From assembly GCA_001662655.1 (NCBI GenBank), contig KV460245.1: a stretch of DNA of 64,000 nucleotides; one strand, written 5' to 3'. Made by a program: the position numbers and the translations under genes. This document shows positions 1,735 through 54,590 of this stretch, piece after piece (positions within the stretch are counted from its first letter, which is position 1; the number at the start of each line of letters is the position of its first letter). This DNA is from Pseudogymnoascus verrucosus (taxonomy: Eukaryota). The notes under the pieces were generated by a model. The model was given only the letters and a program-made list of their open reading frames with translations, was not told the origin of the DNA and searched no databases.

Positions 1735-4283
1735 GTGAGTGAGGGAGGGAGGGTGAGATGGGGGATGTGAATTGGTGAGGGATATTCAAGGGGGGTTGAG
1801 GGATTTAAGGAGTTGGGTTCGTGTAGGTTGGTTATTGAACCTGAACCTTAACCTGAACTTGAGAAACCTGGAAGGGCGGCTGCTCTGCTCATCGATGGGG
1901 GTCCGAAGTTGGGCCTCTAAACTGGATGATGGGATGGGTAGAGATGGGTGGTTATATAGAATGACACAATATAGATGGATAGATGGATAGATTTTATGAT
2001 TATATGGCCTACACACATACACATACATACATACCTGAACACATAGCATCAGGCCCAAACGTCGCGCTGGCATGGCATAGCTAAGCTACAGATTAATGTG
2101 GTGACACCACGTCCTCTCCCAAGACGGGTGCATAACGGCCCGGCGACGACCACCACCTCGATCGATGAGGTGCAGTGTACGACCGGCGACCGGCTGAGAC
2201 TCCGGCCGGGACCATGGAGTGTGCGGTCTGTACTCCGTAAGCTGTCTATCGATCTGTTTTAGCAAGGAGGGGAGTCGGTGAGGTGAGTATGTATGTGAAT
2301 GTCATCGCGGCGTAAGTGGTAAGTGCTGGGGGAGGCGGGTAGGCGGGAGGGAGGGCCACGTTCTGGGTTGATTGGTGGGGCGGGGGTTAGACGCCGTTTT
2401 ACAGCTTTTGGATTGAGTGAGGTAGGGGGGTACTTGGCTGGAGTAATCTGTGGTTGAATGGTGGTACGGTGTGGTAATTGTTATGCTATGTATGCGCATA
2501 TGTATCTGTATGTCTGAGACAGGGGGGCGGTGATGATTGATGGGCGGTACGGTGATAGATGATACTGTACCCGGTGTATGTAGAGTACGGAGCTGTTTGC
2601 TAGTTGGTAGTTGGATATGTACCCCATATAATTTCTGGAGGCGTTAGGGTAGTAGGGCTGGAGATGGGGGAGGCTGGTGGAGGAGAGAGAACGCCGGGGA
2701 TTGGGGATGGGCAATTGGAGGCACGGATGGGGAGCACGGGTAGGACGGGTATGGTCAATGGGCAATCAATGGTTAATCGGCATGGGAAAGAAGACAGGGA
2801 AGGAGAAAAAAAGCTCTATAGCTAGCAAAGCAAGGCGGTGAACAGGGGGAGGTTGGGAGAAGGGAGGGGGATAGACAGGGAAGAGGGAAGGAGGGAATGG
2901 AGAAATGACGGGCCGGCGGGGGAGGAGGGGTTATCTGGTGAGGAGAGAGAGGGGAAATGGGATGGGAGGTTGGAGAGGGATGGGAGGTCAATTGAAGTGT
3001 GTTTATGGCCCAATTCGGTAATTGTGAAGCTGAAGTTAGTGGATTGTAGTGGTCTTCTTCTACTCTTTCTATACTCACTTCTAGACTCCCTATCTCGATG
3101 TTTATATCGTCCACGTCGCGTCTTCATTCGTCTGTAATTGTCTGGATTTGTATGTACTTATGTCTGTATTACACTGTACACACCGTACCTCTACCCGGGC
3201 CCACGGGAATAGCGAGCCAGCCCACGGGATCACTCGTCCCAGCTTCTTTTAGTAAGAACAACCCACTATCATTCACTGTCAACCACTAACATTCCCCCAA
3301 TCAACCCACCAAACCCACAAACCATCCACTAAACAATCCCCCGTCTAGCACCCCAAGCCACCACCACGAAACTAACACTAACAACAGTACAACCAAGACA
3401 ACCCTCAACCCACCGACAACCACCGAAAAAGCCTCATCTTACCGCATTCCATTCCCCTTCGTCGATCTGCAAAACAACCCACGCAGACACCCAGACACGC
3501 AGAGAGAGCTTACATCGACGAGGGTACCACGGTCTACTCACAACACAACTACCTAGAGGTATACACGCCTTACTCGAGCACAAGCACAAGCACAAGCACA
3601 ACCAACCCACAGACCGCTGCACATCGATCCTATTCACACAGACCAACCTGCAGTGGTGTCTATCCATACATATTTCCCCGTATAACGACTACTGTGAAGA
3701 AGAACAGGGAAGAGCTTTGCGCAGGTACAGTTCTCAGACACGGCAGGGAGACAAGACACAGACGACATAGAGGTACAGAAAACCTACAGACGCACACACA
3801 CACACACTGCAGCACTGCAAGCACTGCATCGGCCTTTCTTCACCTCACCTCACGGAACGATAAAAAGCGCGCATTTCGATTGAATGACGGATTGATTGCT
3901 GCTCGCTCCCACCGCCACTTCCACATCTCACCTCTACCTCAACCACGCTCGTTCGCTCCTTCCCTTTCCCGCCCATAATCGCCTCCTTCCATCGCTGGCC
4001 AGACCACGGGATCCCCAAGAGGACCCAAGAGCGAGAGAGCGTCCAGCACAGCGTGCACGTGTACGGTGTAACCCCAAGAACTGGGCACCCACCACCCACC
4101 CGACAAGCCAGCCAGCCCATACAGCCGATCCACGCCACGAACGTGACCGAGCAGCAGCCCCCCATCGCATCACCCAGTCCCCACGAAACACGCTCCCGGC
4201 CAGACACAGACACAGCACCAACAACAGCGCGCGCAAGCCCGCCGACGAACCAATCCGCCACACGGCCCTTAGATGCGCGCCCC

Positions 4284-7200
4284 ATGGCGAAGCCCCCCTC
4301 GGAGCCCGCCCACGCCCCGGGCGGCGTACAAAATGGCGCCCGGCCCCCCGCCGCCGTCGCGGGGATCTCGTCCCGTGGACTACTCCCTCAGCGCCGCGCC
4401 ACGTCTTCGAGTCTGCTAACGAAATTGCTCGCCCCGACGTACGAGGTTGACGAGTCGACGACGGCGGATGCTGCTGCTGTGAACGCAGACGCCGCGGTAG
4501 GAGACGACGAGCTGCTACGGCAGAGAACACAACGACGGGAGCAATTGCTTCCCCGAGAAACGAAAGATATGGCGGCACAGACTATGCGCCCGCTCTCGCC
4601 GCCGCAACAGACGGCGAGGTATAATTTACATGATATGAATATTAACCACGTCAACGCGCTGCTGCACGACCACCGCGCCTTCCTGCGCTCGACGCGCGTG
4701 CGCGGCAATTCGCTGGAGCGCACTTCGCGCGAGAAGATGGGCGCTACCACGGCGAGCTTTGCGCAGCGAGACGTCAGCGGTGGCACGATGACGAACCCTG
4801 GCGATACGGGGTATACGTATACGCGCCCCGCTACCGACGGCGAGGGGATTGCGCCGGGCGATATCTCGGAGCGCCCGCCGACGGAGGGGTTTAGAGCCGA
4901 ATACCGCAGCTGGAGGGATGGGCAGAGGATGCCTGGCGCGGGGATGGCGTGGAGTATTGGCGATGAGGCGCTCAGTCCGGGAGAGGATGGGCAGGTGGAG
5001 AAGTCGATTACGCAGGCGCTGGCGGGGGAGACGCATAATAGTCGCAGTCGGAAGTCGAGTCATAGTGTGAGATTGTTTAAGGAAGGGTTGCCGGAGGAGT
5101 CGGCGAGGAGGAGTCGGTTGAGGGATGAGAAGGGAGCGGGTGGTGAGGGTGCTGGAGAGGCGCAGATGAAGGGGGAAGATAGGTTGTCTCCTATTGCTGG
5201 GTCGACCGAGCAGACTCCTGCGGAGGATGTGTCGGGGAGCTATTTCGATTTACCGATTGTGGAACCGACGAGCACTGCGCCACCGACCTCGCGGCATCAC
5301 ACCGTCGCAGGGAGGATGAGCAGGGCGAACACAACCGGGAAATCCGACGAGTCACCGCGGCGCCCAGAGCGACAAAACACACTCCCCGCACAACTCCTCG
5401 ACGACCTCCGCAGCCGCCACAATCTCACCCCCGCCGCCACGAAAGGCTCCTCCTTCTCCAACAGCATCCCCATCACCGACTCCGAGCGCCAACCCACCGC
5501 CGACCTGAGCATCAGCGTCCCCTCGGACGACAGCACCGCGCCCGCTACCTCGGGCGACGAGAAGCCGCGCACCGAGTCGCCGAACTCGGACGAGGAGTCG
5601 AGCGAGGAGAAGATTTCGTCCGCGCTGTTCGTGCCGCATCAGAGCTCCCGCGAGCCGGGGGATGAGTCGCCGCAGAATACCCCGCCATGTCGCGAGCCGT
5701 TGAAGGATCGACGCGAGAGGGGAGAGGAGGAGCGCTGGCTGGTGGAACATGAGGTTGCGCCGCATGAGGTGGAGAAGGAGGTGTCGCCGGCGAAGTTGTC
5801 GCCGGAGCTGGTGAGTCCGAGGTCGAGAACGGCGTCGGGGTTCTTTTCGCAGACGTCGGGTAATACTCTTAGTTCTAGCGATGCTAGTTATCCGTCTGCG
5901 AAGGGCGAGGAGCAGGTCCCTGTTACGCAGGAGCAGGGAGAGGATGTCGATGTTACTCCGACCGAGCGAAGGCCGTCGCTGCAGGACTACACTATGAAGA
6001 CGCGCGAGCGCGCACCGACACAGGACTCGGCGCAGCAGCAGCCTAGCCCCAAGGCGGCGGGGCCGCTCGAGGCCATCGAGCTCATCCCATATAAGCACCA
6101 AGTCGGCGGGCACACGACGCTCTGGCGCTTCTCGAAGCGCGCGGTGTGTAAGCAGTTGAATAATCGCGAGAATCAGTTCTACGAGACGGTGGAGCATTAT
6201 CATCCGGCGCTGTTGAAGTTCATGCCGAGGTATGTTTTCTTTTTATTTACTCACCCGCCCGGTCTTCCCCGGTAACCCCCACGCGCTGCTGGCGGCGATG
6301 AAGATGAGCCTTGGAAGACTATATGATCTTGTCCACCGCTTTGTTGTTCGTGTTTGTGTCGTTGGAGAGAGTGTGTGCTGATGGGATTATTTGTATTTTA
6401 GGTACATCGGAGTCTTGAACGTCACCTTCGAAAAACAACTCAAACGCAAACCCACCCTCAAAAACACCGGCGCCGCCGAGCTCATCGCCGCAAAAGCCAC
6501 AGCCGCCCATAACGGCACCTTACCCTCCACCCTCGGCGACACAAACGGCATTCGCCCGCGCGTCATCAGCCAGTCCCTCGCCGCCGGCCCGATCCCGACG
6601 CCTACCGTCACCTTCGCGGATAACCGCCACATCATCCCCAAGAGCTTCATGCAGGGCGGCCCGATCCCGCTCACAGAGACGCCGTATAAATCCCTCTCCG
6701 ACTCCAACATCCACGTCTCGCCCGACCACAAGACCGGTCGCAGCACGTCAGAGCCGGTTAATGGCGAGGAGAGACCGACGCTCTCGGATCGTCATGCCGT
6801 CAGCTGGGGCGCGACGACGGTGAATCGCAAACTCCGCTATGAGGTCTTCGGGGAGGCGTTCCTGAGGCAGCCGGTGCAGGTGCAGCCGCATAAGAAGCCA
6901 GGACAGCATCATCTACGAAGGGATCTGGCGCATAGAGCTGTGCCGCCGGTGCTGAGGGCTACGACGTCGGATTCGAATCTGAATCTCGGCGGGAGAGAGG
7001 AGGAGGATGTGTCGCTGAGGATGCAGGCTATTAAGGCGGCGGCGCTGAGGAGGGGGGTGGATGGGGGGGGGAGTCCGACGAAGGTGGGGAGGGGTGTTTC
7101 TATTCCTGTTGCTACTGGGGGGGCACATGCTGAGGCTGCTACGGAGGCGAAGAAGGGGGAGAATGGCGTGTTGAGCGATGAGGAGGAGTTCGCGGAGCAG

Positions 7201-14584: not shown

Positions 14585-15471
14585 ATGGCGGACGCAAATG
14601 CGAAGATCACGGTGCATTCACTGTCAGGTATGTTATTTACAATTCAACCCCCCTCAAAACTGCACCAATTACCCCCATCCATCTCTCACACCCCAAGCTC
14701 CCAAGCTCCACCTGTCAAACCACCAAACTAACTCATTCCCCCAGACCTCAAAAACACCTCCGACGACGCAATCCCCAACTACCTCAATTCCCTCTCCTTC
14801 AAGCAATCGCACACGCTCTGCGACGTGCGCCTCGCGCTTGGCTACTCGGCCTTCGCCATCTGCGCCGCCTGCTTCTGCTGGGACTACAAGCTCGGCTTCG
14901 ACGATACGAAGTACTACAGCGCGGCAGCCGTCGCGCTTTACACGCTCCTGAATGGCGCGCTGACGCTGTGGGTTTGGCTTGTCGAGGGAGGGACGGTGTA
15001 TGTAGGGACTAGTAAGGCGGGCGATAAGGTAAGCTGTCTATCCCATCCCCATCACCCTCTCACCCACCTTCTCACTCACACTCCCACTCTCACTCTCACC
15101 CCAAAACCGAGCGCAAGCTAACACCACACCAGATCGCAATCTCCACCTCCACAAAAAAGCACACCCCAACCTACACCCTAACCATAACCTCTCAATCCCC
15201 CACCTCCCCCGCCGCCACAACCACCACCCTCTCCCGCCCCTTCGCAGACTGGTTCGACAGCGCAGGCCACTTCGTCGCCCTCCCCTTCCAGCAGATGCTC
15301 GCCGGAGCCGCTCCCGTGATAGGGAAGGCTGATCCCGGTAGGGCCGCGCTGGGGGTTAAAGGGAAGGAGGCGGAGGTGGCGGCGTTGAGGGAGACGGTGG
15401 AGGAGGCTGTCAGAGCTAGTGGGAGTGCTGTTGGTGGGGAGGGGGCGAGGGGGAGGAGGCAGAAGGCGTAG
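14585..15471 (+). CDS. SPC2: Signal peptidase complex subunit 2 (SPC25 family), 3 exons
   Basis: Spliced product MADANAKITVHSLS/DLKNTSDDAIPNYLNSL..DVRLALGY, two TM helices, then PFADWFDSAGHFVALPFQQML. Stop TAG at 15469-15471. Confidence 0.87.
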
Positions 15472-16082: not shown

Positions 16083-16145
16083 ACATGCAACAGTAGGTAT
16101 TCGCTGGTGGTCACCCACCCAACTACTAATCTACCGATTTCAAGC
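16083..16145 (-). rRNA. 5S rRNA: 5S rRNA gene 1, 3' part (nt 57-119), interrupted by element 1
   Basis: Reverse complement reads GCTTGAAATCGGTAGATTAGTAGTTGGGTGGGTGACCACCAGCGAATACCTACTGTTGCATGT, the typical ascomycete 5S 3' half. It is followed by AA and a T7 Pol III terminator (16074-16080). Confidence 0.92.
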
Positions 16146-16286
16146 AAACACCTGGATATTACTTAAATCGGTGCCATCTGGCCTAGCGGGTGAGCCTCGC
16201 CGCCCTTACCCTTGTTTCGACCACCTCGACCATCCAAAAGTGGGTCCATTTTTGACGACGTGTTGCACTGCGACATTAGATGCACA

Positions 16287-16398
16287 CAGGTGAGCTGGGT
16301 GGGTAGGTGAGCATGGTGAGCAAGGTAAGCAGGGTGAGCAGGGTGAGCAAGGTGAGTAGGGTGAGCTAGATGGGTGAGGAAGGTGAGTATGGCTGAGC
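16287..16398 (+). repeat. Left subterminal array of degenerate 9-bp CAGGGTGAG repeats (element 1)
   Basis: caggtgagctgggtgggtaggtgagcatggtgagcaaggtaagcagggtgagcagggtgagcaaggtgagtagggtgagc... Confidence 0.85.
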
Positions 16399-16835
16399 TA
16401 GGGACATGGTATAAAGGGCTAGTCTCCCGCCTTCACATTTCAAGGTCCTCTTTCTACAACTTTGTATTTTTTTCAATATCTACTACAATAGGACGGAAAG
16501 CCCTTCCTCCTAAAGATCGGCTTGCTCTGGCACAGAAGCGAGGCTATTCTGCGTAGTTTTGTGGAGGCGTTTGGTATGGACCGTGCACATTGCGTCTCGT
16601 ATATGAGGCTGAGTTGACTCCTCTCGTTCAAAATCCTAGCATTAAGCTAGGCGTCCAATCGTCATTCAAATTTTCGATCCCAAATGGTATCTGGCACTTC
16701 CTCAAGATCGGTATAGCCGGTTACAGTGTCTCCCCCCTTGAAGTCTACAGCTAAACCACACGCTACGCTTCTGACGCACACCATCCTTCGTAACAGGCAT
16801 CATCTTTAACGTTTATATCACGCTCCCCGTGATAA

Positions 16836-18759
16836 TTAAATGCTAACCTTAATAACATCGGCAATCTTCTCTGCAATCGCATAAATCGTACTCGTCAAAT
16901 GCCCACTGACCTGGGTCGGGATAACACTTGCGTCAACAACCCTTACGTTCTGCGTCCCGTAAACCCTCAGCTCACTATCCACAACTCCGCCAAGCTCTCT
17001 TGACATCATAGCTGCCGTTCCTAGTGGGTGTGAATTCCCAGCAACTTGGTGAATGTCAGTAAGAAAAACGTCCCAAGAGAGGTAGGACACTAACAAGTGG
17101 TCTTCACCCAATTCGCCCATTGCTCATAAGAAGCATCTTTAGGCAATGCATCAAATCCAGGAGACGTCTCAGTTGCGAGACCTTGGATAGGAGGCGTTTC
17201 CCAGAATTTCCTTGTCCATTTCGCAATCGCTACTTGGACGTCGACGTCAAAGTCAACGAGGAAATAGTTTGGGTTTATGACCGGATATGCCAAAGGATCC
17301 GAGGAGCTAATATGCACGTTGCCTCTGGAAAAGGGCAGTAAAAGCCAAAATGCTGAAGCTACCAAACCGCTTGGACCTAAGCCAATACTGAAGGTTGTCT
17401 CGAGGATTGATTCTGCATCCACAACGCCGTTGTTAATTAATTCATATTGTATGCGGAAAAGTTGTTCCAACGATGATACGCTAATAGCATGATCGATTGC
17501 GACTGCAACTTTCTCAGCCCAAGCCGTTAAGTTGACATTTTTAGGCAGCGAGTCCAAAAAATCAGAAGCTGAACCGAAAGCTACGTATGGAATAGATCCA
17601 CTAAACGTTGTATTAGAAGACATGATAATCTGGCTGTTCGGTTGGTCTTGTAAATTTTCGCCGACGGCGGGGAGGTTGACCTTGACAGGAATTCCGGATT
17701 TATTTAGGATGCTTCTCACGTCAGTAAACTTGGTGTGTTTTTGAGGAGGCTTAACTACCTGGGATTTCCTATTCCTGAGAGCTCGAGAATGGCAGGAGAT
17801 CTTAATGAGCCGGCTGAGAGAATGACTTCACGTTTGGCATCAAGGGTAGTAACTGTGCCATCCGCAGCTGTTATTTCCACACCACCTGCAACAGCGCATT
17901 CGCTCGTGGACTCTCGCCAGGTAATCCTATTTGCAACTGTGTTTAGGAACACGTGAAGATTGGGCCTGCTTTGAACTGGGTAGTAATACGCTCTACCAGC
18001 ATCTTCTCGCAGGTTAGCATCCCGATTCATGGTACTCTGCCAAACAGTAAAGCCTCGAACATTGCCACCATTAACATCAAGACTCGTAGGAATGCCCAAA
18101 TTGTTCCATGCCTGTTCTACCACTTCGTGGTATGTGCCATTCAGCAGTCCAAAGCCATATCCTACATTTAGTGGACCTTTTTTGCCATGTTGTTGTGAAA
18201 CGTATGTTGCACCTGCTTCGACTTGAGCAGATGTGGGAGAATCGAACTGCTCGCTTTTTAGGTAATACGGGAACAGGTCGTCCCAACTCCATCCACTATT
18301 TCCAAGTTTTTCCCAAGCATCTATCTGAGCTTTCTCTGCGCGCACATATGTCATGCCTAGATTTGTTAGCGATCAACATTAGGGATGCTAAGATCATACC
18401 ATACCATTGATTGTGCTCGTTCCACCAAGAGCTTTGCCAGAGTGATATGCGATTTTTTGGTCTCCTGCATGAGTTTGATTGACAGATTCATATTGCCAGT
18501 CGATCGCGGTACCAAGGGCGAGCGTGAAGGAGTTTGGGTCCGTCACATTCGGATTGTTAATGACTTCACCGCCTGCTTCAATTACTGCGACAGTAACATG
18601 CGGAAACTCAGTAAGTCTATTGGCCAGAGTCAGGCCTGCTGTTCCACCGCCAACAATAATAAAATCAAACTCGGGTTCCAATGCGGCACAATGGGAAACT
18701 AGCAAAGCTGGTGCGACAAGGACAAATGCCCAAGTTCGAAAGTGAGTTGGAGCAATCAT
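16836..18759 (-). CDS. Secreted GMC oxidoreductase (glucose oxidase/dehydrogenase-like, AA3), 4 exons; cargo of element 1
   Basis: Signal-peptide-like N-terminus, [15 protein letters not shown] motif, [47 protein letters not shown] and catalytic HPLGTAAM and [13 protein letters not shown]. Three GT-AG introns all splice in frame. Confidence 0.92.
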
Positions 18760-18866
18760 AATAGAAAGGTTTAAAGTTGACAGTAGCGAGGTGGGCTACG
18801 GGAATTTCTTAAGATTATTATGGGGCAGTGCATGGGTTTTATAGTTCTTGACGATGACGAAACTAT

Positions 18867-18963
18867 TAATTCGGCCCTATCCTTTCTTTCAGGGAGTTGA
18901 AAGATAATTCGGCCCTATCCCTATCCCTGAAAGAAGGGATAGGGCCGAATTATCTTTCAACTC
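18867..18963. repeat. Nested inverted repeat: perfect 29-bp hairpin plus an overlapping 28/29 inverted copy
   Basis: 18894-18922 is the exact reverse complement of 18935-18963 (12-nt loop). 18867-18895 pairs 28/29 with 18924-18952. Confidence 0.9.
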
Positions 18964-19016
18964 AGTAATAAATGGGGTAACTTTTGAGACTAGTGTGCAT
19001 TTCGTAGGATTTTAGT

Positions 19017-19051
19017 GCCCTGCTCACCCTGCTCACCCCTCGCCTCACCCT
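19017..19051 (-). repeat. Right subterminal CTCACCCTG array (element 1), inverted relative to the left array
   Basis: gccctgctcaccctgctcacccctcgcctcaccct. Confidence 0.8.
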
Positions 19052-19122
19052 TCAGGCGGCAAGGGGCCGTGATTCCGCGCCATGCCTATTGGCACGATTG
19101 AGACCATTAGTCTGATGTTACG

Positions 19123-19183
19123 CAAGCTTGTGTATGGCAGAGCGGACGGGATGCCCAATTCTCTTGAGTCTATGGTCGTATGT
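19123..19183 (-). rRNA. 5S rRNA: 5S rRNA gene 1, 5' part (nt 1-61)
   Basis: Reverse complement reads ACATACGACCATAGACTCAAGAGAATTGGGCATCCCGTCCGCTCTGCCATACACAAGCTTG, with the canonical fungal 5S start and the CATCCCGTCCGCTC loop. Confidence 0.92.
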
Positions 19184-19752: not shown

Positions 19753-22700
19753 TCAATTCCCCTCCCCCTCCCCAACCCTCCACCAAGCACTCAAACAATC
19801 CACCCCCCCCCTCCTAACCTCTCTCCCCCCATCCCCCACCACGGACCCCAACCCCCTCACCACCCCCCCTCTCAACCTCGCCACCACACTCACCTCCCAC
19901 ACCTTCGGCAAGATCTCCAGACATTCCAGCGCGCGCACCTTAACCTCCCTACTTTCCCTCCCCGTCGCACAAGCCAACAACCTCTTCACGAGCGCTGCGT
20001 CGTGTTCTTGTAATGCCTTCGGGCTGCTGGTAGCGGCGGAGCGGAGGACGGCGATGGAGGCTTTCTTTGTGGCTGCGGGGGAGGAATCCAGGGATTGCAG
20101 GAGGGGAGGGAGGAGGGAGGGGATGAAGGGTGTTATGTACTCCTCCGGCGCATGCCCCAACAATCCCGATAGCGCAACGAGGACATTTGTTTTTGTCGCG
20201 GCAGAAGTGGTAGGGGAGGAGAAGGTGGAGAGAAGGGCGGGGACAGCGGTGTGGAAGAGGCGCTGTTGTGCGAGGGGGCGGATGAGAGCGTGTTGGCGAC
20301 GCGTGAGAAGTGGTGAGGGCGCGAGGAGATGCGTGAATGCCTGTGCGGCCAACTGTCCCGTCGGCGCTGGTAGTTCGAGCGCGGATAAGAGGGCGGTGGT
20401 TAATTGCGTCGCAGCAGGCAACCCAGCGAGGAGAGAGGCGTGCGTGCACGTCGTCAAGGTTTGAATCGTCAACTTCGCCTCCTGCGCCGACAGCGAGGGA
20501 AAGGTAGTGAAAAGACCCAGGAGCTGTGCTGTGACAGCAGGAGTTAGAGCGGCGAATTTGTTGATCAGGAGGGAGAGGATGTCAAGCAGCGTGGAGCGCA
20601 AAGCCGGGGTGGAAGAGGTGGTGGCGAGGTAGGTGATGAGGTTTGTGACGGCGGCGGTGGTGTTGATGGTTAGGATGCGCTTTTTGACGGGAAGTGCTGC
20701 TGGTGGTGGGCTGGCGGCGACGACAGAGGCGGGCTTGGTGACGCGGTTGTCACGGCGTAGGGTGGCGAGGATGTATTTCGTCAGGGTTAGAGCGTGGAGT
20801 TTGTCGGCGGGGCCGGACAGGAGGTCGAACTGCGCATCAATGATGTCGATGCGCTTGGAGATATCAGTGTTGGCGGAGAGGTCATCGTCGACGGGGAGGT
20901 CGTCTGGTGAAGTGACGGCGACGCAGGCAGCGGTGAAATCATCGTATGCGACGCTCAACGCAAATGCCCTCTCAAAGATCCAGTACTGCTCCTCAAAGCC
21001 CATCCCGCAGGTGGCAGCCATGATGATCCTCCCCACGACGTCCAGGAAGGTATCGTCAGGCTGCACCTTGCCGCCTGCGGTTTCCAACTCACGGGTCCCG
21101 ACATACCACTTCTTTGAATGCACCTTGAGCGCCGCGGTGCGACGAAGCAGTTCATCAACAAGACTGCGATAGTCCTCCTCATCTCTCATTGCGACCTCAC
21201 CATTCTCACTCTGCGCCTGCCTCTGCTCGACAGCGTATAAGATCCCCGCAAGCACCAGGTGTGCGTACTTCTGCGACTCGTTCGCACGGAGGACAATATC
21301 CAATTTGCTCAGCAATCTCCGTAAGAGTGTGTCCATAATTCGTCCCCTGGAGCCAATATCACCCAACGCTTGCAGCACGGCGAGTTTGTCCGCAACAGTC
21401 TCCTCACCTTCCAAAACATCCGGCAACGAAGCCAGGAGCACAGGGAATGCCTGCTCAGTAACCAAACGGGTATATAGCACCGCACACTCCTGCAGTGCTT
21501 TGATGGCCTCTTTCCTCACAGGCTCTTTCAGATCCGCCGTCTCGAGCACAACGCCGGCCAAAAACTGGACATACGAGTCCAAACTCCCCTTCTCCAGGAA
21601 CTGCGGCAGCCTCAGCAGCTTCGCCAGGCCCTGCATGGCCGCAACGCGGAACTGCTTGTCATCGCACTGGGTATCCCTCGCGACGCCCATATACATCGCC
21701 GTCAGCTCGTCACGGTAGTACTCAAGTCCCTTGTTCGCGACGCCTACATCCGTTCCAGACTCAGACGCGCGATCGGCATCAGAGCTGATCCCGTCAATAA
21801 TCCCCACAGCGCTGAAGTCCCACTTATCCTGTCGTCTCAACGCCTCAAACTTGCCATCGAGAAGTAAATTGGTCGTCTCGACCACCGCGCGCTTATCGGC
21901 TACACTTGCATCTCGGCCGCTAAATTCTTTCAACAGCTCGGGGATCGCGGCGCGCATGACGAGGTGATACGCGAATGGCGATGCGGCGATGATGGAGGCC
22001 ATTATGGCACCAGCACTGGCGGAGTTTTTGGGCCCGTTCTCGCGCAAACGTGTCATGCACTCATCGACGATAGCGGCGACGTAGGTCTGCAGCACGGTGC
22101 CGACGAGGTTTTGGATGACGAGGTCGCCTGAGAGGCGGGCAGCGATGGCGCCGAGGACGTCCAGGGCTTTAGGGGCTTGAGAGTCGTCACTCGAATTAAA
22201 GATCTCGTATTTCAAGGCATCCCATAGAGGGCTGCTCCATTTGGAGACAGTGGTCGGGTGGTAGCGCTCGATGCACGCTTTCATAGTGAGTAGCACGTCG
22301 GCTTTGGCGTTGAGGCGATTCGGGTCGTCGAGGCGCTGGATGAGGTTTGGAAAGATGGAGGGCGCGAAGCCGCTATAGGCTGCGAAACATTTCCTCAATC
22401 TCAGTACCAGCTCGGGTGGATCGATGCTGGCGGGATCATTCTTCTTCGCCGAAAAGGTAATCGGAAAGTATCGCGAGAGCAATTCATAAAGATCTTCTTT
22501 GAGACTATCGATATCATCGATATCCCACTCCGCGAGTATCACCTCCACCATCGAGAAGATGAGCATCAGATTCCTCGGATCCCTCTCGCTCGCCGACAAC
22601 TCAATAAGCATATTAATGAAATCCACACCCGTGGCCTTCATCACATCGCGGTGTGCGCTCAGAAGCTCATCCAGCAGATTATAGACTTCGAACCTCGTCA

Positions 22701-23374
22701 TCACCGACATCTTGGTGAAGCCTCCCGGGGCGGCCTGGGCGGCATTGAAAACCTGAGAGACCAGCGTCGCTGCACGAGCGGCCTCAAAGCGCAACATTGC
22801 CACAAGATAGCGCAGGGATTGAACGGTCTCCTTGAAGCCGCTCGGGTCGAGGCCGAGGCGTGCCTCGACGAAATTGAAGAGGAGTCGCACTAGATGGTTG
22901 TGTTAGGTGAATTCCCCTCAGAGATAAGGAAGGATAAGGAGGAAAGGAAACTCACCATTCGATCGCGTCAGGGCGTCGGGTTTGAGACCGCGCAGGATGG
23001 CTGCGACGTACTCCATGGCTATTTGTTGTCAGCTCCGTGTTTCCCAATTCGAGATCGGGGTTCGGGGGGGTAGACGACGTACTTTGTGTCTTCTGCTCGT
23101 CGTCGTTCCCGAATAACGGATCACGCAGCGAGAGCACGACATCTCCTAGTTTGGTACTCCCATCTTCGAGTCCTGTGGTAATCAGATGTCAGCTTTGCTC
23201 CTTCTATCCATGTCACCCTCATCACCCCGGAGCCGGAGACACCCATGTCCTGCCTACCTCTCTAGAATCACAAAATCAAGCACACATACCTTTAACAACA
23301 CTCTCCACGATCTCTGTCCTCCTCTCCCCTTCAGGCGCCAACAGATACGCAGTTGCCGTCAGCGAGTCCTCCAT
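19753..23374 (-). CDS. MMS19: MMS19/MET18 cytosolic Fe-S assembly HEAT-repeat protein; short 5' exons approximate
   Basis: 1045-aa exon with ERDPRNLMLIFS, YFPITF, LRLRKCFAA, LWDALKYEI and C-terminal IRPLAQQRLF, LLPPLLQSLD, REVRRGGVDCLSAW. Upstream exons inferred from ATG 23374. Confidence 0.85.
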
Positions 23375-29535: not shown

Positions 29536-29598
29536 ACATACAACAGTGGGTATTCGCTGGTGGTCACCCACCCAACTACTAATCCACCGATCTCAAGC
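29536..29598 (-). rRNA. 5S rRNA: 5S rRNA gene 2, 3' part (nt 57-119), interrupted by element 2
   Basis: Reverse complement reads GCTTGAGATCGGTGGATTAGTAGTTGGGTGGGTGACCACCAGCGAATACCCACTGTTGTATGT, followed by a T-run terminator. Confidence 0.92.
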
Positions 29599-29757
29599 AA
29601 TCCTCTAGATAATAGTTAAACCGGTGCCATCCAGCCTAGTAGTTGAGCCTCGCTGCCCTTACCCTTTTTTTGTGATCGCGACTACCTCAACCACCTCGAC
29701 CACCCAGAAGTGGGTCTAGTTTTGACAACGCGTTGCACTGCGACAGTGGACGCCTTT

Positions 29758-29838
29758 AGGTGAGCAGGGTGAGTGGGCGAGCGTGCTGGGTATGGTGAAC
29801 AGGGTGAGCAGGGTGAGCAGGGTGAGCAGGGTGAGCAG
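29758..29838 (+). repeat. Left subterminal CAGGGTGAG array (element 2)
   Basis: Four perfect tandem CAGGGTGAG copies (29800-29835) plus degenerate copies upstream. Confidence 0.88.
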
Positions 29839-31417
29839 AGGGTCACATGTGAGACGGGAAACTCGTTCTTCATCCGCTGCAGCACCACTATATTGCAGAT
29901 TTGATTTGGGCTTCGTTCACAAGAGGATACAATTAAGAGGCCTGTGCGCTAGTAAGGTAGCCACAGCTTATACGGAGCTTATGTTCATAGGTTTTGTGAG
30001 TGGGGGGAGATATTAAAGCCTCGCGCACGGCTCCGCGGAAATCGATGATGTATCTCGCCTTATATTTTGTACGTGATCGATACATGAGTATATGCTGCTG
30101 TGCACAAATCCTGGGTCCCTTGTTCGATCCACTCGCAAAACTTTTGAACATTACCCCTGTACTGACTCGTGTGAAGGGTCAATACTTGTGAACTACTGGC
30201 CCTGCTCAGCCACCACTCCTTTAAGAAAATATCAAATTCTGGTGCTGTGTGTTGTGTGCCGCGATGTTCGGCCGGCACCTGTTTCATTGGTCGGATACTT
30301 ATAGGGAGGTTATGTACATAAGTTTTGTAAGTGGAGCCTGTGTGTTGATGCCACTAAGACGGAATCTGCGGGGTATGCTTAAAATGGAAATTGTAACACC
30401 CTCAATCGCAGGGAACCCCAGCTTTAGTTGGTTGGTTGGGGTTGGTTAGGGGTTGTTGGATCTGGCTCCGAAAGACTGGTGGTTGGTAACCTCTCGATTT
30501 TGGAGTATGAGCTCACGCCTACCCCATAAAGAGCCTTAAGGAGAATTGGGGCATTATTACGAGTGGGTCTTTACGTTCGTAATTAGCTTAATTGATCTAC
30601 GTGGCTTACGCTATTGAGTGTTACGCTACCATTCTAAGCGTACCCCGCAGATTCCATCTGTGTGGTATCAACACACAGACTCCACACTTTGTCCTAGGCC
30701 ACCTGTGGATAGAGATGCTGTAAAGAATCACACGCCAAAGGCTCAATCAATGTTGGCTTTTGCAAGGGTAGAGTGGCTGATTTTAGGAAGTGAATGTCTA
30801 TACGGAGATATATACACGCCATACCATGGTGGACTTGATAGAAGACTAGTTGGTTGGAAGTATGAAGAGATCAAATGAGACGGGATGAGATTTGGAGAGG
30901 GGATAGATAGTTGGTTGAGGGCGCTATTTTTGTGGGCGCGGATGGTGGAAGGGGATCCACTCCATGTGCATGTATGGGATGGAAGTTGCGCGGTATAGCC
31001 CTCAGCTACTATCCCCTGAGTGATTATCGCGACACGCTCTGTTAACAAAAGGCAACTGCGAGTTAGATCTTCGTATTTACGCCTTTGTACCAGGTTACTT
31101 TCTGGCAAGTTCCGGCATTGACAAGGCGCTATCAGGGGAGCTGTTAGGGTGCCATCATTTTGACATTCGCCAAAAGCCCGTATGTGACATCGATCCGCCT
31201 CGGAAGTGGTTTATATAGTCTGGGGTTCCATTATTGCTCCAGAACTGGTGCGAATTACCTTCTCCATCTCAGACTACATACAGCCACATCACCGCATCAA
31301 AACAATTGTTTTGAGGTGGCGATGTCTGTGCTGTTGAGTAATATATATGTATTCTTCGGTTGCAGTGCCTAAGGTCTATATATCCATGATATTGAAACCA
31401 ATTGCATGAGATGAGCA

Positions 31418-32903
31418 ATGCAGGTCCTTACAGAGGAGCAAACGAGAGCGCTAGCGGCCGAAACTAGAGGTCCCATTCTCCTCGGTCTTTCGATATCCTT
31501 TACCGTTTTATCTTCCATCTTTGTGGTATTACGAGTCATCGCAAGGTTCTGGATTATTAAGGGTGCAGGATGGGAGGATTATACTATAGTGGTGGCTGTG
31601 GTACGTAAGAGGACGCGAATTGTTATCGAAAGACACAGTCTAATATACTACGTCTTTAGGCCTTCAACGTAGGAATGGCAGCGTGTCAGATTCAAGGTGA
31701 GCCTTTCCTTTAGCTTCCTGATCTCCACGACACCCAATTGCTAATTCCTCCTCAGAGGTGAGATATGGCACTGGCCGGCACGTACAGTTTCTTGAAACGT
31801 CACAAGTCGTTGGCATTCTCAAGGTCAGTTCCATTGCTCTCTCCAGAAAATCCATTGATCTCACGCTTATAGTATCTCTTCTGGAGCATTATCTCTTACT
31901 GTGTCACCCTTAGCCTCGTTAAAACGAGTATTCTCCTCCAATACTACCGCATCTTCGGGGGGAACGATGCAACGAGATATGCAATCTACGTGGCCCTCAT
32001 CATTGTCATCGCATTCGGAACGGAGTGCGTAATCAGTGATATCTGGACCTGTGTACCAGTTCAAGCCTTCTGGGAACTCAGTCTCCGGCCGACCTCTAAA
32101 TGTGTGGATCAGAACAAGTATGTATTCATGCACGCGGCTAGGGCGACGATTCGAACTTCATACTAACTTTGAGCAAGGCTCTTTCTGGCCAATGCCTGCA
32201 TAAACATCGCTACCGACCTGATAATTGCCACGATTCCTCTGCCCATCGTCCATAAACTCCGCATCCCCTTCCGACAAAAAATTGCATTGATGGTCATCCT
32301 CGGCATCGGTTGGTTGTACGGAGCCCCTTCTCCCCCTTCCCGCAATACCACAAAGCTCACATCACCCCACATAGCATATGCGCCGTTTCCATGCTCCGGC
32401 TCAACTCCATCATCGGCCTCGCTAAGCAAGCCGACACTACCTTCTACAGCGGTGAAACAGCTTACTGGTCCACTATCGAAGTCAACGTCGCGATCATCTG
32501 TGCCTGTCTCCCGACGTTAAATCCTATCTGTAGGCTGATCTTCCCACGCTACTTCAGATCGACCCAAAGCGCGAAGTATGACTCGAACAGTGAGCGCATG
32601 TTAGGCAACAACGCGTTCGTTCAGCTCGCTGGGGGCGCCTCTGCGTCGAAATCGAGGCAGGTGGGCAAGAGGAGCTGCAATGGGGACGAGGACGGGCTGC
32701 GAGCGGCCGAGAGGTACCAAGCGGGGGTGGCGGCGAATCTAAATGGAGACGACGGGAGGGCAGAGGATGGGAACGAGCAGGCGATTCGGGTGGAGAGTAG
32801 CGTGCAGCAGACCGTCTACATCGAAGACGATGAGAGCGGGCAGAGTTATACGAGTGCGAGCGTGAGCCAGAGGGACTTGATCCCTATGGTTCCTGGGCGC
32901 TAG
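31418..32903 (+). CDS. PTH11-like (fungal rhodopsin-domain) 7-TM integral membrane protein, 6 exons; cargo of element 2
   Basis: Spliced motifs VVLRVIARF..GWEDYTI, YGTGRH, KTSILLQYYRIF, CVPVQAFW..C, NIATDLIIATIPLP..KL..PFRQK, ICAVSMLRL and WSTIEVNVAIICACLPTL. Five GT-AG introns splice in frame. Confidence 0.9.
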
Positions 32904-33090
32904 TGGAAATGGAGCTTCTCCTTTGACGATTTAGACTTCATTCGTGAGTATGGCTCACAAATGACAAATAAGCTATAAAATAAGAGCAAGGCACCCTTAA
33001 TATGGTATGTAAGTTAAGATAGCCAAACTTCAGTGCTGATACGAGAATGATGCGGAAGTGACGCCAAACTAACACAAAGATGTTGCTTTG

Positions 33091-33158
33091 CCTCACTCAC
33101 CCCACTCACCCCGCTCACCCTGCTCACCCCTACCCTCACTCAACCCTCGTCTCACCCT
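33091..33158 (-). repeat. Right subterminal CTCACCC array (element 2)
   Basis: cctcactcaccccactcaccccgctcaccctgctcacccctaccctcactcaaccctcgtctcaccct. Confidence 0.82.
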
Positions 33159-33229
33159 TCAGGTGGCAAGTGGCCCCGATTCGGCGCTATGCCTATTGGC
33201 ACAATTGAGACTATTAGCCAGAGGATACG

Positions 33230-33290
33230 CAAGCTTGTGTATGGCAGAGCGGACGGGATGCCCAATTCTCTCGAGTCTGTGGTCGTATAT
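33230..33290 (-). rRNA. 5S rRNA: 5S rRNA gene 2, 5' part (nt 1-61)
   Basis: Reverse complement reads ATATACGACCACAGACTCGAGAGAATTGGGCATCCCGTCCGCTCTGCCATACACAAGCTTG. Confidence 0.92.
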
Positions 33291-37283: not shown

Positions 37284-38113
37284 TACTGACACTGGCGCTG
37301 CCGCTGGCCGCAAAACTAAACCCACCACAGTAAGTATTTTTTCCTTTGCCAAGGACAGACAGAAGACAGAACCTCATCTCGCAGTTAATCGCACGTGTGT
37401 GTTATGGAGTAACTATAAGCTGTCATGCATGCACTATGTAAGTGCCCAGTAAGCTGACGGTGTGTACGAAGAAGGCTGCGATCGACACCTCAGTAATTCC
37501 TGTCAGCTTCTATAGAATAACCTTACTGTACTTCATACAGACGATTTGTAGACTAAGGCTAGTTTTGCTCTCTAATGCATGCAAGTGAGAGTAGTTAAGG
37601 GGTGAGGTCCCTCGATGAAAGGTGATGAGATAAATGAACTCCCAGACATCGTGAAAAGTCAATCATATAAGGTTTGGACACGCATATTAATTAATGTAGA
37701 GCAGAGCTTTCTCTTCTAACTGCCGAGTAACAGGGGCTGGAAGACCACGTGATGTTTGCTTCTTGGATATTGGAACCATGCAGCAGTGGTGGTCTGTGGT
37801 GTACTCCTTGCAGGATGTACTCTGACAGAAACGGAACCTTGCATCGGGAGGTCACCTGACTTGGCGTAAAGTGACACGCGCTCGGAAGCACGTTGTCGCG
37901 ACGACATGATTTCTCCACTTCCACGCACCAAGTTTGCTTCCAGGCACAAACGGCAACACCAACCGCGTCGTTTCGTTTCGACTGGATCAAATATGCCATG
38001 GACAGCAAATAAACAATAACTCTCGCCAGCCATCAAATTCAAGTCGGCTGGGCTCCAAGCACGATTTCTCGGGCGTTTCCATTCCCCGAGACAAAGGCCC
38101 GAAGGCTCATGAA

Positions 38114-41100
38114 ATGGCAGCCCTGGAGAGAGCCCGTCTGCGGATGGCAAAACTCGGCGACGAAATAGCGCTCTGCTTTGACGATGAGGTCATCTGCGAA
38201 GGATCAGATGCAGAGGACAGTCTCCTGTCAAAGGCGGAGCGACAGAGACGGCGCGAGGCTATCGAAAAACGATACATTGCTGGACATGCTCCCCTGATAA
38301 TGTCAGCACAGCTTAGAGGACCATTCGACAAGAATAGCGGATGGGTAAACCCGTGGCAATCGAAACGGCCGACCCAAAAGCAGCCAACGAACAGAACGAC
38401 AGTTACGGAACACCCGAATCTCGCTCATAAAACCACTTCAGTCGTCGGTTTGGGAAAGCGCCGCAGGGATGACAGCAACTCATCCAGCTCCGTTGGTACG
38501 CGAACCAAAGCATTGGCCGAATGTTCCAGTACATCAATGGATATAGTCAATAATCGCCAGCCAGAGCGGCCCCAACTACATTCTGGATTCAAGCGGTTTG
38601 TCGCGAATCAGCTTGAGAGGCCCTCGGATTTTGCGAGCCTGGACGAGCGGGAAAATATATTACAAAAGCCAGGCGTTGGCATAAAGAGGAGGGCTGATAC
38701 AAACTGGTTAAAAGGGGCAGATGTTGGGAAACGCTCTCGCAACAACTGGTCAGATCCCACGTCGCCAACGCCGAAGGAGAGGACCCGAGATATCGTCGGC
38801 AATGACAAAGCTATAATAGATGCGTCTAGTATGTCTATGTCTAATGTGAGCATTGCGAAATTTAATCGACAACTACCTGCTGAAACGGCGAGCCTGTCTG
38901 AATTTGAAGATATCCCGGTTTCGACAGCAGACTCTGTACGCTCCACACGCACCACGGTCCAGAGGCGCGGCGATGGCAATATCCAGCCTACTCCCAATGT
39001 CACTGCCAAAAAAGCCGAAGATACGCGGCGTGAAATATCGGTGCGACCAGAGTCTGCGTCTAGAGTGTATGAGGAGTCGGCATCTAGTGCGGGAAGTGTG
39101 GATGGAGATGGGTTAGATTCGGCTATGGAAATTGGCCGCACAGCCCCTGAGTATTCTTTGAATGGAAGTTCATTCGTGGAGCCCGAGTCATCCTTTGGAC
39201 ACAAATCAGTACATCGATGTGATTCGGTGCTATCATTTGAGCCGTCGCCCGTTCATACTATTGCGCGAAGCCAACTAAGCCAGGAAATACTCCACGGCCT
39301 CTCACAGGCTTCTCAGCTAGCTTGTTCAGCTGAGCAACTGACACCCCGAAAGCCGGATGTCTCTGCATTGAATATTGCCGAAAGTCATCGCTCAGACCTA
39401 GCAAAGCGGAATGGTCTATCACCATCAAGTAAGAAGACGCCTTCGCAACTTGTCTCAGCGTCGTTAAACCATACATCACAAGCAAGAAGTCAATCGCATC
39501 CCCTCCAAAAAAGCCCAGTGGGGGTTAATCTGCTCAAACCTAAAAGAAATGACCGATCACGAAGCTTCGATTCTCCGTTGCCACCAGGCAGTTTGAAGTA
39601 TCGCAGAGTCAGGCGCAATGCACCAACCACGGCCGAGGGCAGTCAGAATGGTGATTCACGTAAGGCTATTGAGAAGCAGAAGACACCTGAGGCGGCTCCT
39701 CTTCAGTCAACAGAGGTTCAAGATGATGCACACAAAAAAGATGTGGTGTCTCCCGCTAGCCAAGCCCTGAATTATGTCGATCTAGCCAGGGATCGGTTTT
39801 CAACCTTTAATTCCGGGCGGCTGCTGCAGCCGCCTGGCTCCGTGCCAATTATTGAGATAACCGACAACGACGCAGATGAGGATTCAGAAACGAAACCATT
39901 GGATAGAGATATTGACGATCGGGCGCCCACACATGCCTCTGTTCCTCCAATATCGCCAGTTACGAAGGATGGGCGCAATGAATTGGAAGCCGCGCACGAG
40001 AGCTGTCCTACGCCAATAATTGATGGTCGTGGAAGCGAAAGCAGTCTTGATACAACTGTTATGCCTTGTCAAGAAAACGGAGAAAGTGAGGGCCTCTTAG
40101 CCAGCGAACAGGCTCTTGGGACACAACCGCCTCCCATCGAAATTGCAGCGGAGACAAACAGCGGAAATGTCGAACACAAAGAAGAACTCCCTTCTTCTAA
40201 GGCCACAACTAGCGTCACGAAAGAAGCGACCATTGGAGATGTTACATTATCACAGGACACAGGCTCTCTACTAGCATCTCCTGACCTGACAGACAATGAG
40301 TCCACGCTCGTAGAAATATTACAACATGTTTCTCAAGGGCCCATTCCGAAATCCTCGCCATTGCCTCCATTGCCTGACATTGTCGACGACGAGCAATTTT
40401 CAGACACAAGCTTTATATCTGCCACTGAAGAGTCTATTCCGAAATCCCAACCCGCGCCTGCTGATGTTGGAGACGACCAAGTTTTAGAGGCAAGCTTCAC
40501 GTCTGCTCCAGAGGAGGTCCACTCCCTTCCTGTACTGCAAAGTCCCTGGGCAGTTGAGGATGTGCCTGTACCACAATCCCTTTGGATCGAGCCTACCGTA
40601 CGTACCGGGAATTTCTCAATGAGCCAAAGTAAAGATGCCGCTCTGCTGCTCGCGGGAACTGAGCCACATTGCTCTGGCGCCGGTTCACCCGTGCACAATG
40701 GCGAATCATCAGTCCGCAATTCCGAACCGCCCCAGACCAACGAACTCGTTTTCAGCGGCGTTGTATCTTCGTGGTTGATACCCACAGGTTCCCCTCCGCC
40801 ATCCCCAAAATATCTCTCACCGCGCAAGTCTCACACTCCGCAATCGCCCACGGTCGGAAACGACGACCTCCTCCCCCTATCCAACCCCTGGGCGAACAAC
40901 ACACAGAGTCCAATAATACATCCACGCCCTATCAAACGAAAGAAGCGTGTTTCTTTCAATCCTCCGCCACTCGACAGTGACAGCGAAGACAAACAGCCCG
41001 ACCAGCCAAACAACAAAACACCCCAGTCAAGGGACCTCTCCAGTCCGCCTCCACCACCCGAAGCTGAGTCTCTTACAAAGGGGAATAATTCATGTCACCG

Positions 41101-41614
41101 GAAGCTCAAGTGGACGAGTGGGATATTATCTAGGCGCGCATCGAATGACCAGCTTAGCGTGCCCAGAGAGGATACTGTCCCGGGCAGCCCAGGCGTCGGT
41201 GCAATGGCCGAAGCATTTTTGGCTGCTGATGCGAGGGCTCAATCTGCGGATAGCAATTCCGGAGAAGTGCGTGACAAGGATGCATTTACCGGGCCAGAGA
41301 ATTTTGACATAGTCGAGGATGGAGAACAGCAGGGTAAAGTCAGCGCAGCTTCCGCTGTGCGAGCTGTACCACTTATGACGGAGAGCCAGCTGGTCAACCC
41401 CTGGGGCGATGAGGGTGAGGCTCCCTTGTTTTGTATGGCGGACTGTAAGCCTGAGGAGGACGACGGGTTGGTAGAGGATGTACTAAGTGATATGGATGCG
41501 ATGCTGGGTGACTGGAATGTAGACGCTGAGTTGGATCGTGCAAAGAGGGAAGGAAAGGGGCAGTTGGAGAGAGATGAGACTGCCAGGGAGAGGCTGGTAG
41601 AGGCGGGCTATTAA
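38114..41614 (+). CDS. Large, mostly disordered hypothetical protein
   Basis: Open frame of more than 1100 codons. N-terminal block RRRREAIEKRYIAGHAPLIMSAQLRGPFDKNSGWVNPW and C-terminal LGDWNVDAEL resemble a Pezizomycotina hypothetical family often labelled protamine P1-like. Start set at the first in-frame ATG. Confidence 0.75.
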   Translation: MAALERARLRMAKLGDEIALCFDDEVICEGSDAEDSLLSKAERQRRREAIEKRYIAGHAPLIMSAQLRGPFDKNSGWVNPWQSKRPTQKQPTNRTTVTEHPNLAHKTTSVVGLGKRRRDDSNSSSSVGTRTKALAECSSTSMDIVNNRQPERPQLHSGFKRFVANQLERPSDFASLDERENILQKPGVGIKRRADTNWLKGADVGKRSRNNWSDPTSPTPKERTRDIVGNDKAIIDASSMSMSNVSIAKFNRQLPAETASLSEFEDIPVSTADSVRSTRTTVQRRGDGNIQPTPNVTAKKAEDTRREISVRPESASRVYEESASSAGSVDGDGLDSAMEIGRTAPEYSLNGSSFVEPESSFGHKSVHRCDSVLSFEPSPVHTIARSQLSQEILHGLSQASQLACSAEQLTPRKPDVSALNIAESHRSDLAKRNGLSPSSKKTPSQLVSASLNHTSQARSQSHPLQKSPVGVNLLKPKRNDRSRSFDSPLPPGSLKYRRVRRNAPTTAEGSQNGDSRKAIEKQKTPEAAPLQSTEVQDDAHKKDVVSPASQALNYVDLARDRFSTFNSGRLLQPPGSVPIIEITDNDADEDSETKPLDRDIDDRAPTHASVPPISPVTKDGRNELEAAHESCPTPIIDGRGSESSLDTTVMPCQENGESEGLLASEQALGTQPPPIEIAAETNSGNVEHKEELPSSKATTSVTKEATIGDVTLSQDTGSLLASPDLTDNESTLVEILQHVSQGPIPKSSPLPPLPDIVDDEQFSDTSFISATEESIPKSQPAPADVGDDQVLEASFTSAPEEVHSLPVLQSPWAVEDVPVPQSLWIEPTVRTGNFSMSQSKDAALLLAGTEPHCSGAGSPVHNGESSVRNSEPPQTNELVFSGVVSSWLIPTGSPPPSPKYLSPRKSHTPQSPTVGNDDLLPLSNPWANNTQSPIIHPRPIKRKKRVSFNPPPLDSDSEDKQPDQPNNKTPQSRDLSSPPPPPEAESLTKGNNSCHRKLKWTSGILSRRASNDQLSVPREDTVPGSPGVGAMAEAFLAADARAQSADSNSGEVRDKDAFTGPENFDIVEDGEQQGKVSAASAVRAVPLMTESQLVNPWGDEGEAPLFCMADCKPEEDDGLVEDVLSDMDAMLGDWNVDAELDRAKREGKGQLERDETARERLVEAGY

Positions 41615-54472: not shown

Positions 54473-54590
54473 GATGTTGCTGTCACGGAGCTGTTGCTGT
54501 CACGGAGCTGTTGCTGTCACGACGCTGCTGCTGTCAGGAAGCTGCTGCTGTCACGAAGCTGCTGCTGCCGCGAAGCTGCTGCTGTCGAAT
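54473..54590. repeat. 17-bp minisatellite, about 7 copies (GCTGTTGCTGTCACGGA)
   Basis: gctgttgctgtcacgga x2, then progressively diverged copies. Confidence 0.85.

Follow-up and report, generated by a model that had tools for sequence, protein, structure and literature searches.

A single-gene insert in a 5S rRNA gene of Pseudogymnoascus verrucosus: probably a non-autonomous miniature Starship

A 5S rRNA gene split by an insert

The window analysed here is a 64-kb stretch (64,000 nucleotides) of contig KV460245.1 of the fungus Pseudogymnoascus verrucosus (assembly GCA_001662655.1), in which a 5S ribosomal RNA (rRNA) gene is interrupted by an insert carrying a single GMC oxidoreductase gene; insert and 5S halves together (16083..19183) are called element 1 below. 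Joining minus-strand positions 19183-19123 to 16140-16083 gives a 119-nt 5S sequence, to which the 5′ half (19123..19183, minus strand) contributes nt 1-61 and the 3′ half (16083..16140, minus strand) nt 62-119. The join is exact and involves one shared word, the 5-bp direct repeat GCTTG (5S nt 57-61), which stands at both insert ends (19127-19123 and, as the downstream copy on the minus strand, 16145-16141), lies within the 8-bp palindrome CAAGCTTG of the intact 5S gene, and has 2,977 bp between its two copies. Next to the downstream repeat comes the downstream element end (16146..16366), with an inverted arm at 16147-16160 and an array of nine GGTGAG units (16289-16400) most of which falls within that end. 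The upstream element end (19018..19122) contains three CTCACC units and the corresponding arm (19106-19119). The GMC gene starts 363 bp inside the upstream end and is transcribed in the 5S sense. Outside the element lie two core genes, SPC2 to the left (signal peptidase subunit, 14585..15471, plus strand, limits read from the sequence; Pfam SPC25, E 5.6e-40) and MMS19 to the right (19753..23374, minus strand). An earlier, sequence-only reading of this DNA had described the 119-nt join, a 2977-bp insert with an intact four-exon GMC gene and the position between SPC2 and MMS19, all of which our analysis bears out. The indices of repeat-induced point mutation in element 1 resemble those of the window and give no sign of that process. 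Upstream of the GMC start, a repeat scan detected overlapping perfect or near-perfect 29-nt inverted repeats (18867..18963), where a 16-nt word present three times (two direct, one inverted) forms the 29-nt hairpin arms; an Rfam match to Plastid-psbJ-5 at the same place is below threshold and was dismissed as chance.

No whole 5S gene of the window matches Rfam at the gathering threshold (0 matches). The 3′ halves of element 1 and of a second split 5S gene, ten kb away (element 2), are both partial matches to RF00001 below that threshold (25.0 and 24.8 bits vs 38). Both 5S genes of the window are thus split, and no intact one was found in the 64 kb. The 5S sequences obtained by joining the halves of the two elements are identical at 112 of 119 nt, and that of element 2 folds into the three-helix shape of 5S RNA (-33.7 kcal/mol). 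In contigs from all four of the sequencing runs examined (X2, X3, X4 and X6, from three studies, out of 23 runs listed), the uninterrupted 5S join was found at high depth with an exact 5-letter overlap, which also delimits the downstream repeat copy; an intact 5S allele of the same sequence type therefore exists, in many copies. Relative to single-copy sequence, the element ends had a depth of 4-16x and the intact 5S gene of 22-35x, ratios that are rough and not equal to copy numbers.

One could argue that the GMC gene is simply a resident gene next to chance 5S fragments, or that the arrangement is an artefact of assembly, the more so as the gene occurs widely in the genus and originates from Leotiomycetes. 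However, the exact 119-nt join with one shared 5-bp word occurs twice in the window and, for one end, once more in a metagenome contig, and the interior is bounded by the end arrays in the four runs. Since the exact join and the independent copies already exclude chance fragments and misassembly, we regard this explanation as highly improbable.

The cargo gene and its predicted enzyme

As modelled from the sequence, the GMC gene (minus strand) consists of exon 1 (18405..18759), exon 2 (17759..18356), exon 3 (17095..17711) and exon 4 (16836..17044), separated by three GT-AG introns, and its frame is intact. The annotated protein has 592 aa and ours 593, the annotated acceptor of exon 3 (17711) lying 3 nt further on than the one used in this analysis (17714). 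The N and C domains, the FAD-binding (flavin adenine dinucleotide) GxGxxG motif in exon 1 and the catalytic pair His529 and His572 in exon 4 (592-aa numbering) are all present, as is typical of the AA3_2 clade of glucose oxidases (GOx) and glucose dehydrogenases (GDH); the FAD motif and both histidines had been pointed out in the earlier reading. Exon 1 matches a Pseudogymnoascus protein at 100% identity. G+C content at third codon positions is 0.41 vs 0.49-0.73 in seven long neighbouring frames. The protein begins with a hydrophobic stretch encoded in exon 1 and contains six N-glycosylation sequons, from which we take the product to be most likely secreted.

The closest solved structure is the FAD-glucose dehydrogenase of Aspergillus flavus (4YNT; AA3_2, GDH I) at 610 bits, and no solved structure closer to the GMC protein was found; glucose oxidases score 311-315 bits. 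The A. flavus enzyme and the GMC protein are alike in fold family, His/His pair, Asn503 and Trp415. Six residues contact gluconolactone in the A. flavus enzyme (PMC4642536). Three of them, Asn503, His505 and His548, are kept, whereas Tyr53, Glu413 and Arg501 are replaced by Phe78, Ala438 and Ala525, so that at the positions of the glucose-specific set of GDH I and GOx I (Tyr53, Glu413 or, in GOx, Asp, Arg501 and Asn503) the protein has Phe, Ala, Ala and Asn. Leotiomycete relatives show much the same pocket pattern in the alignment, and since it is common to this subclade it is a subfamily trait and not decay: the gene is a member of a Leotiomycete lineage of FAD sugar dehydrogenases whose sugar pocket is altered. 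Enzymes without these residues favour maltose, gentiobiose or laminaribiose (PMC8537048, PMC8296622). The Pycnoporus oligosaccharide dehydrogenase (6XUT), which like the GMC protein has neither the Arg nor the Glu in the alignment, favours laminaribiose (PMC8296622). Because the GDH score is twice the GOx score and Tyr53, Glu413 and Arg501 are replaced, the enzyme is likelier to be a dehydrogenase than an oxidase, and glucose is not an assured substrate. Judging from the residues, the cargo would be a secreted FAD sugar dehydrogenase with quinone-type electron acceptors and a pocket widened away from glucose. The earlier proposal of a glucose oxidase/dehydrogenase-type activity thus holds as to kinship with FAD-glucose dehydrogenases, and falls short as to oxidase activity and glucose as substrate.

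In a tree of 29 rows the GMC protein nests among Leotiomycete homologues and nine Pseudogymnoascus proteins form one clade; on account of this nesting, a transfer from another fungal class was rejected. The 90% protein cluster has 12 members, namely these nine named Pseudogymnoascus proteins and three fragments. Since the frame is intact in all nine, at 90-99.7% identity, it is plausible that the gene has been kept by selection.

Further inserts with the same ends

In element 2 (29536..33290, minus strand), another 5S gene is interrupted at the same position, with halves at 29536-29593 and 33230-33290, a copy of the GCTTG repeat at 29594-29598 and 3,631 bp between the two repeat copies. The downstream ends of the two elements are 76% identical over 243 columns and the upstream ends 85% over 91 nt. 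Both elements have inverted GGTGAG arrays (9 + 3 units in element 1, 6 + 5 in element 2) and 14-nt inverted arms beside the repeat, which match at 9/14 and 12/14 positions, respectively; over the inner 6 nt, arms match at 5/6 and 6/6 positions within elements vs 3/6 and 4/6 across elements, a weak signal at n = 2. The cargo is a different one: a gene in the opposite orientation (31418..32903, plus strand) for a fungal rhodopsin-domain membrane protein (Pfam PF20684; 399 aa annotated), whose nearest matches outside the genus are only about 30% identical and which we presume to be PTH11-like. Element 2 also contains, at 30331-30685, an inverted repeat with 57-nt arms (88%) and a 241-nt spacer, possibly a miniature inverted-repeat transposable element, with no clear target duplication. 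Elements 1 and 2 were also considered as the two ends of one large element, an idea that was discarded because each has both ends and both 5S halves, with core genes in between.

A third copy is found in the metagenome contig L001 (1220-2410), in which a 5S 3′ half is followed by the repeat and the downstream end, without a GGTGAG array, and then by a frameshifted cytochrome P450 gene; its flank is unrelated to the window. The cargo was recognized as a P450 N-terminus by ESM Atlas (score 0.95), with no Pfam or PDB match. The ends of this contig carry adapter-like sequence. Three other metagenome loci (L002-L004) proved to be chance matches in a bacterial-looking open reading frame (ORF), with no likeness to the window, and pattern scans of viral contigs and prokaryote genomes found no instance of the element pattern. 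Thus the same ends occur at the same 5S position with three different cargos (GMC, rhodopsin-domain protein and P450).

The sequencing runs point to further copies within genomes. At one position of the downstream end, a variant letter was present in 4, 10, 13 and 8 contigs of X2, X3, X4 and X6, respectively, and in all four runs loose contig ends lead from element ends into other interiors. In two of the four runs we detected an end-to-end junction (33229 to 16141) with one repeat copy, a 5-letter overlap and approximately single-copy depth; such a join of upstream to downstream end through one repeat copy is the junction expected if a recombinase stacks elements end to end. Apart from these elements, a second and different insert family appears to use the same 5S crossover (19123, 29598): in each run, 5-10 contigs continue from the 5S 5′ half into a different conserved sequence, in two runs 5-6 contigs do the same from the 3′ half, and both ends of this family carry a word matching 5S nt 67-74 in reverse complement.

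Likeness to Starships

Among the published mobile elements compared, the ends of element 1 most resemble those of Enterprise (family 6) Starships. Six family-6 Aspergillus elements were taken from the starfish catalogue (PMC11162782 Table S7) by motif search, so that the comparison is one of likeness and not a test of membership; in five of the six the direct repeats fall on the 5S word TTAAGCC, and five of six list GGTGAG/CTCACC in their inverted repeats. Motif polarity is the same as in element 1, GGTGAG standing upstream and CTCACC downstream in the 5S sense. The published Enterprise repeat aligns to nt 46-59 of the window 5S sequence (10/14 letters), GCTTG being nt 57-61. Osiris h1 (PMC12153272 Table S3), of which one row measures 11.7 kb, has the same repeat, and together with aspjen1_s01490, aspacu4_s00331 and aspnig13_s01999 (PMC11162782 Table S7) it resembles element 1 in the 5S stretch entered (about nt 53-64) and in having a short direct repeat. 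The Aspergillus elements further share with element 1 imperfect GGTGAG/CTCACC inverted repeats, a fixed orientation relative to 5S and intact cargo; unlike element 1, they carry a captain, whereas element 1 has none, holds one cargo gene, resides in a Leotiomycete and has several copies of its ends per genome. The captains of the six begin 256-349 bp inside the upstream repeat, and the GMC gene begins at 363 bp, at the same end and in the same sense, which may be chance.

Measured against the Starship definition, element 1 has boundary direct repeats matching the target, short imperfect terminal inverted repeats, intact cargo and a 5S target at the TTAAGCC register, the last being typical of Aspergillus Enterprise members without defining the family as a whole. 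It has no captain as first 5′ gene: a search of 42 longer ORFs of the window, and of 39 short ORFs within or near the parts of both elements outside the cargo, turned up no DUF3435 captain. Its size is likewise out of range, the 2,977 and 3,631 bp of elements 1 and 2 comparing with a minimum of 15,020 bp among 348 catalogued Starships (PMC11162782). By the catalogue definition, therefore, element 1 is not a Starship, as it has no captain and is a fifth of the minimum size. Its ends are nonetheless very probably Starship-derived. For both P. verrucosus and strain 23342-1-I1, family-6 captains belonging to a single 50% cluster are on record, with no element rows among the catalogue rows searched.

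A 5S-targeting element of another class, for instance a DDE transposon or a Crypton-like element, would account for the 5-bp repeat as a target-site duplication and for the fact that no captain is linked to these ends; its likeness to Starships would be convergent, and GGTGAG is after all a short motif that also occurs in a family-7 element. Set against this are the 5S register and motif polarity shared with Enterprise-family elements, the terminal inverted repeats that stop short of the very ends (offsets of 1 and 3 nt), and the end-to-end junction, which keeps one repeat copy as a recombinase crossover would. We consider another class improbable. Mobile cargo, the core of the earlier suggestion that the GMC gene was acquired in this way, is supported because the ends are common to two other copies with other cargo at the same 5S position and match Starship ends; given its Leotiomycete nesting, the gene is not foreign to the class.

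Two kinds of captain-less element offer further parallels. In mini-HEPHAESTUS (PMC10104507), ends and one cargo gene are movable by a captain acting in trans, and element 1 likewise consists of ends and one cargo gene; it is, however, a laboratory construct with ends of 3.8 and 1.9 kb and a TTAC target, whereas element 1 is natural, has shared ends of about 0.1 and 0.2 kb and sits in 5S. The Derelicts of Macrophomina phaseolina (bioRxiv 10.1101/2021.12.13.472469) are Starship-derived and have, like element 1, lost the captain and kept cargo. They are defined by Starship-type cargo and read as degraded, whereas element 1 has its ends and repeat complete, carries a gene that is no Starship auxiliary and shows signs of having moved later. 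Aspergillus nidulans is also said to have several copies of 5S pseudogenes in which 5S halves adjoin a conserved insert of about 0.2 kb, ‘block C’, with GGGTGAG repeated; cargo, a second end and a mechanism are reportedly not described for them, and we mention them as a lead only.

Evidence for and against movement

One indication that element 1 has moved in its present small form comes from divergence. In X2, X3, X4 and X6 the interior differs from the window at 13/2626, 18/2617, 13/2626 and 21/2691 positions (0.50, 0.69, 0.50 and 0.78%), whereas the MMS19 side differs at 77/6512, 126/3920, 158/3920 and 266/3959 (1.2, 3.2, 4.0 and 6.7%; Fisher p 2e-3 to 3e-38), and the left flank by 1.7, 6.0 and 7.1% in the runs where it is listed. 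As the interior contigs are 2.6-2.7 kb long, the small form is present in these runs. Selection on the protein alone should not hold silent and non-coding sites, introns included, so still.

A second indication is given by strain 23342-1-I1, whose GMC protein is 97.5% identical, sister to that of F-4519, and agrees with the verrucosus clade at 13 of 14 diagnostic sites; in topology tests on a 12-row tree, a tree holding the other three together was rejected by the approximately unbiased test (p-AU 0.016). Its MMS19 is 69.9% identical and falls into another clade, with F-4517 and P. australis, and its genome covers 61% of the P. destructans reference vs 77% for verrucosus (PMC5727414). The two genes lie on different contigs in this strain (GMC tag 06099, MMS19 tag 05543, 556 tags apart), whereas the annotated order in P. 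verrucosus is 07807 GMC, 07808 MMS19, 07811 rhodopsin-domain gene, a record that has the same GMC protein and gene order as the window, possibly represents the same DNA and was not counted as independent. The GMC tree is thus discordant with strain relationships for 23342-1-I1, as movement would predict, and follows the strain clades elsewhere, as vertical descent would. Presence and absence also speak with two voices: of the 12 named strains for which an MMS19 protein is on record, 9 contribute no named protein to the GMC cluster, five of these with an MMS19 89-97% identical, and among the 120 of 897 GMC matches listed there are no other Pseudogymnoascus proteins; these absences may instead reflect 2.6-kb contigs dropped from the annotations, and one cluster accession is without a name. 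As a separate observation, MMS19 proteins of deep Pseudogymnoascus clades share only about 70% identity, much less than a genus-wide nonsynonymous divergence (dN) of about 0.04 (PMC4438637) would lead one to expect, which marks MMS19 as a fast-evolving core gene.

A number of further observations weigh against movement of a captain-less form. No empty allele of the locus was seen in the contigs of the four runs, which break inside the 5S halves, and element 1 was not seen as DNA at a second 5S site in these runs, so that one site is proven. Nor did an instance of the gene at this locus lacking element ends or 5S halves come to light, in material that allowed no direct check. The GMC contig of F-103 (11,309 bp) is consistent with the window layout provided that it stops at the MMS19 break; in F-103, F-4519 and 24MN13 element 2 seems to be syntenic, and in three runs it diverges by 2.6-3.0%, like its right flank. 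Both elements may accordingly have been fixed here for a long time. With the exception of 23342-1-I1, the GMC tree follows the strain clades published by Leushkin et al. (PMC4438637), at 90-95% identity. For 23342-1-I1 itself, a tree placing it outside the other eight, with the root on its branch, is not rejected (p-AU 0.18), its species position rests on one gene and a coverage table, and the case is known from the GMC gene and not from element ends or 5S halves. Recombination in the genus exchanges fragments of 0.1-10 kb (PMC4438637), and this could explain the low divergence without any recombinase. The 5S halves of element 1 are somewhat decayed, with pair-breaking changes at nt 63 and 115 of the join. 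As to the link with Starships, the catalogue rows were picked by the motif, which one family-7 Fusarium element combines with a non-5S repeat, and the family-6 captains listed for Pseudogymnoascus are short (1.8-2.1 kb vs about 2.6 kb in Aspergillus), possibly broken and not linked to the ends described here.

Much of this would follow if a large Enterprise-type Starship had inserted into the 5S gene and deletions had then removed the captain and almost all of the cargo but not the GMC gene, leaving an immobile remnant whose low divergence is due to homologous exchange, with 5S halves and repeated ends serving as homology arms. Captain loss in Derelicts and short-fragment exchange in the genus are both described (bioRxiv 10.1101/2021.12.13.472469; PMC4438637), and the likely synteny in F-103, that of element 2 in three strains and the mostly vertical GMC tree all fit. 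Deletion does not, however, readily account for two neighbouring elements in which ends, repeat and arms are all whole, for arms that match better within than across elements (although this is weak), for GMC and MMS19 on different contigs in 23342-1-I1, or for many end copies with different small cargos. We regard an immobile remnant as the main competitor, if a distinctly less probable one. Our preferred interpretation sees in element 1 a complete miniature, lacking a captain, of a 5S-targeting Enterprise-lineage Starship, and takes this miniature to have been moved in trans; to this we assign a probability of about 0.55. On the separate question of movement in captain-less form, the balance tips slightly in favour. 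Element 1 is probably, then, a non-autonomous, single-gene mini-Starship integrating into 5S genes.

A possible mechanism and its implications

If element 1 is such a miniature, a captain (tyrosine recombinase) made elsewhere in the genome would bind the element ends and excise the cassette, which would then integrate at the same position of another 5S gene, sometimes end to end behind another element. For an engineered mini-element, mobilization by a captain supplied in trans is documented (PMC10104507). The family would serve as a reservoir of cassettes with one gene each (GMC dehydrogenase, rhodopsin-domain protein, P450), and at least one transfer of the GMC cassette, in its small form, would have taken place between Pseudogymnoascus lineages. 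In its widest form, which we put forward tentatively and hold to be somewhat doubtful, this would amount to a Pseudogymnoascus family of natural non-autonomous mini-Starships, about 5-15 per genome, that use the dispersed 5S genes as a common attachment site, can be stacked, carry one gene each and are moved in trans by captains within and between clonal species. If true, such a family would parallel, in a eukaryote, the gene cassettes of bacteria; searches that start from captains would not see it, and its shared ends of 0.1 and 0.2 kb would define the minimal cis-sequences of a Starship.

Targeting of 5S, captain loss and activity in trans are each known separately. Of natural single-gene mini-Starships, in the form of multi-copy 3-4 kb cassettes with signs of transfer, no description was found in the literature searched, which included passages of PMC13004909 and did not cover subscription papers. 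Starship catalogues begin from the captain gene and therefore miss captain-less elements by design. If the cassettes move, the mobility of fungal cargo reaches down to single 3-kb genes, genes that look resident between core genes could be mobile, and the short fragments exchanged in a mostly clonal genus of cold-soil fungi gain a candidate vehicle. Element 1 also offers a compact natural test of the end sequences required by a captain, which would be useful for site-specific integration.

Other features of the window

Away from the two elements, long open frames of 1,234 and 795 aa, with no Pfam match, are found at 37910-41614 and 3888-6275, respectively. Tandem repeats occur at 54453-54605 (17-nt units, seven registers listed) and at 60532-60703 (three copies of units of about 57 nt).

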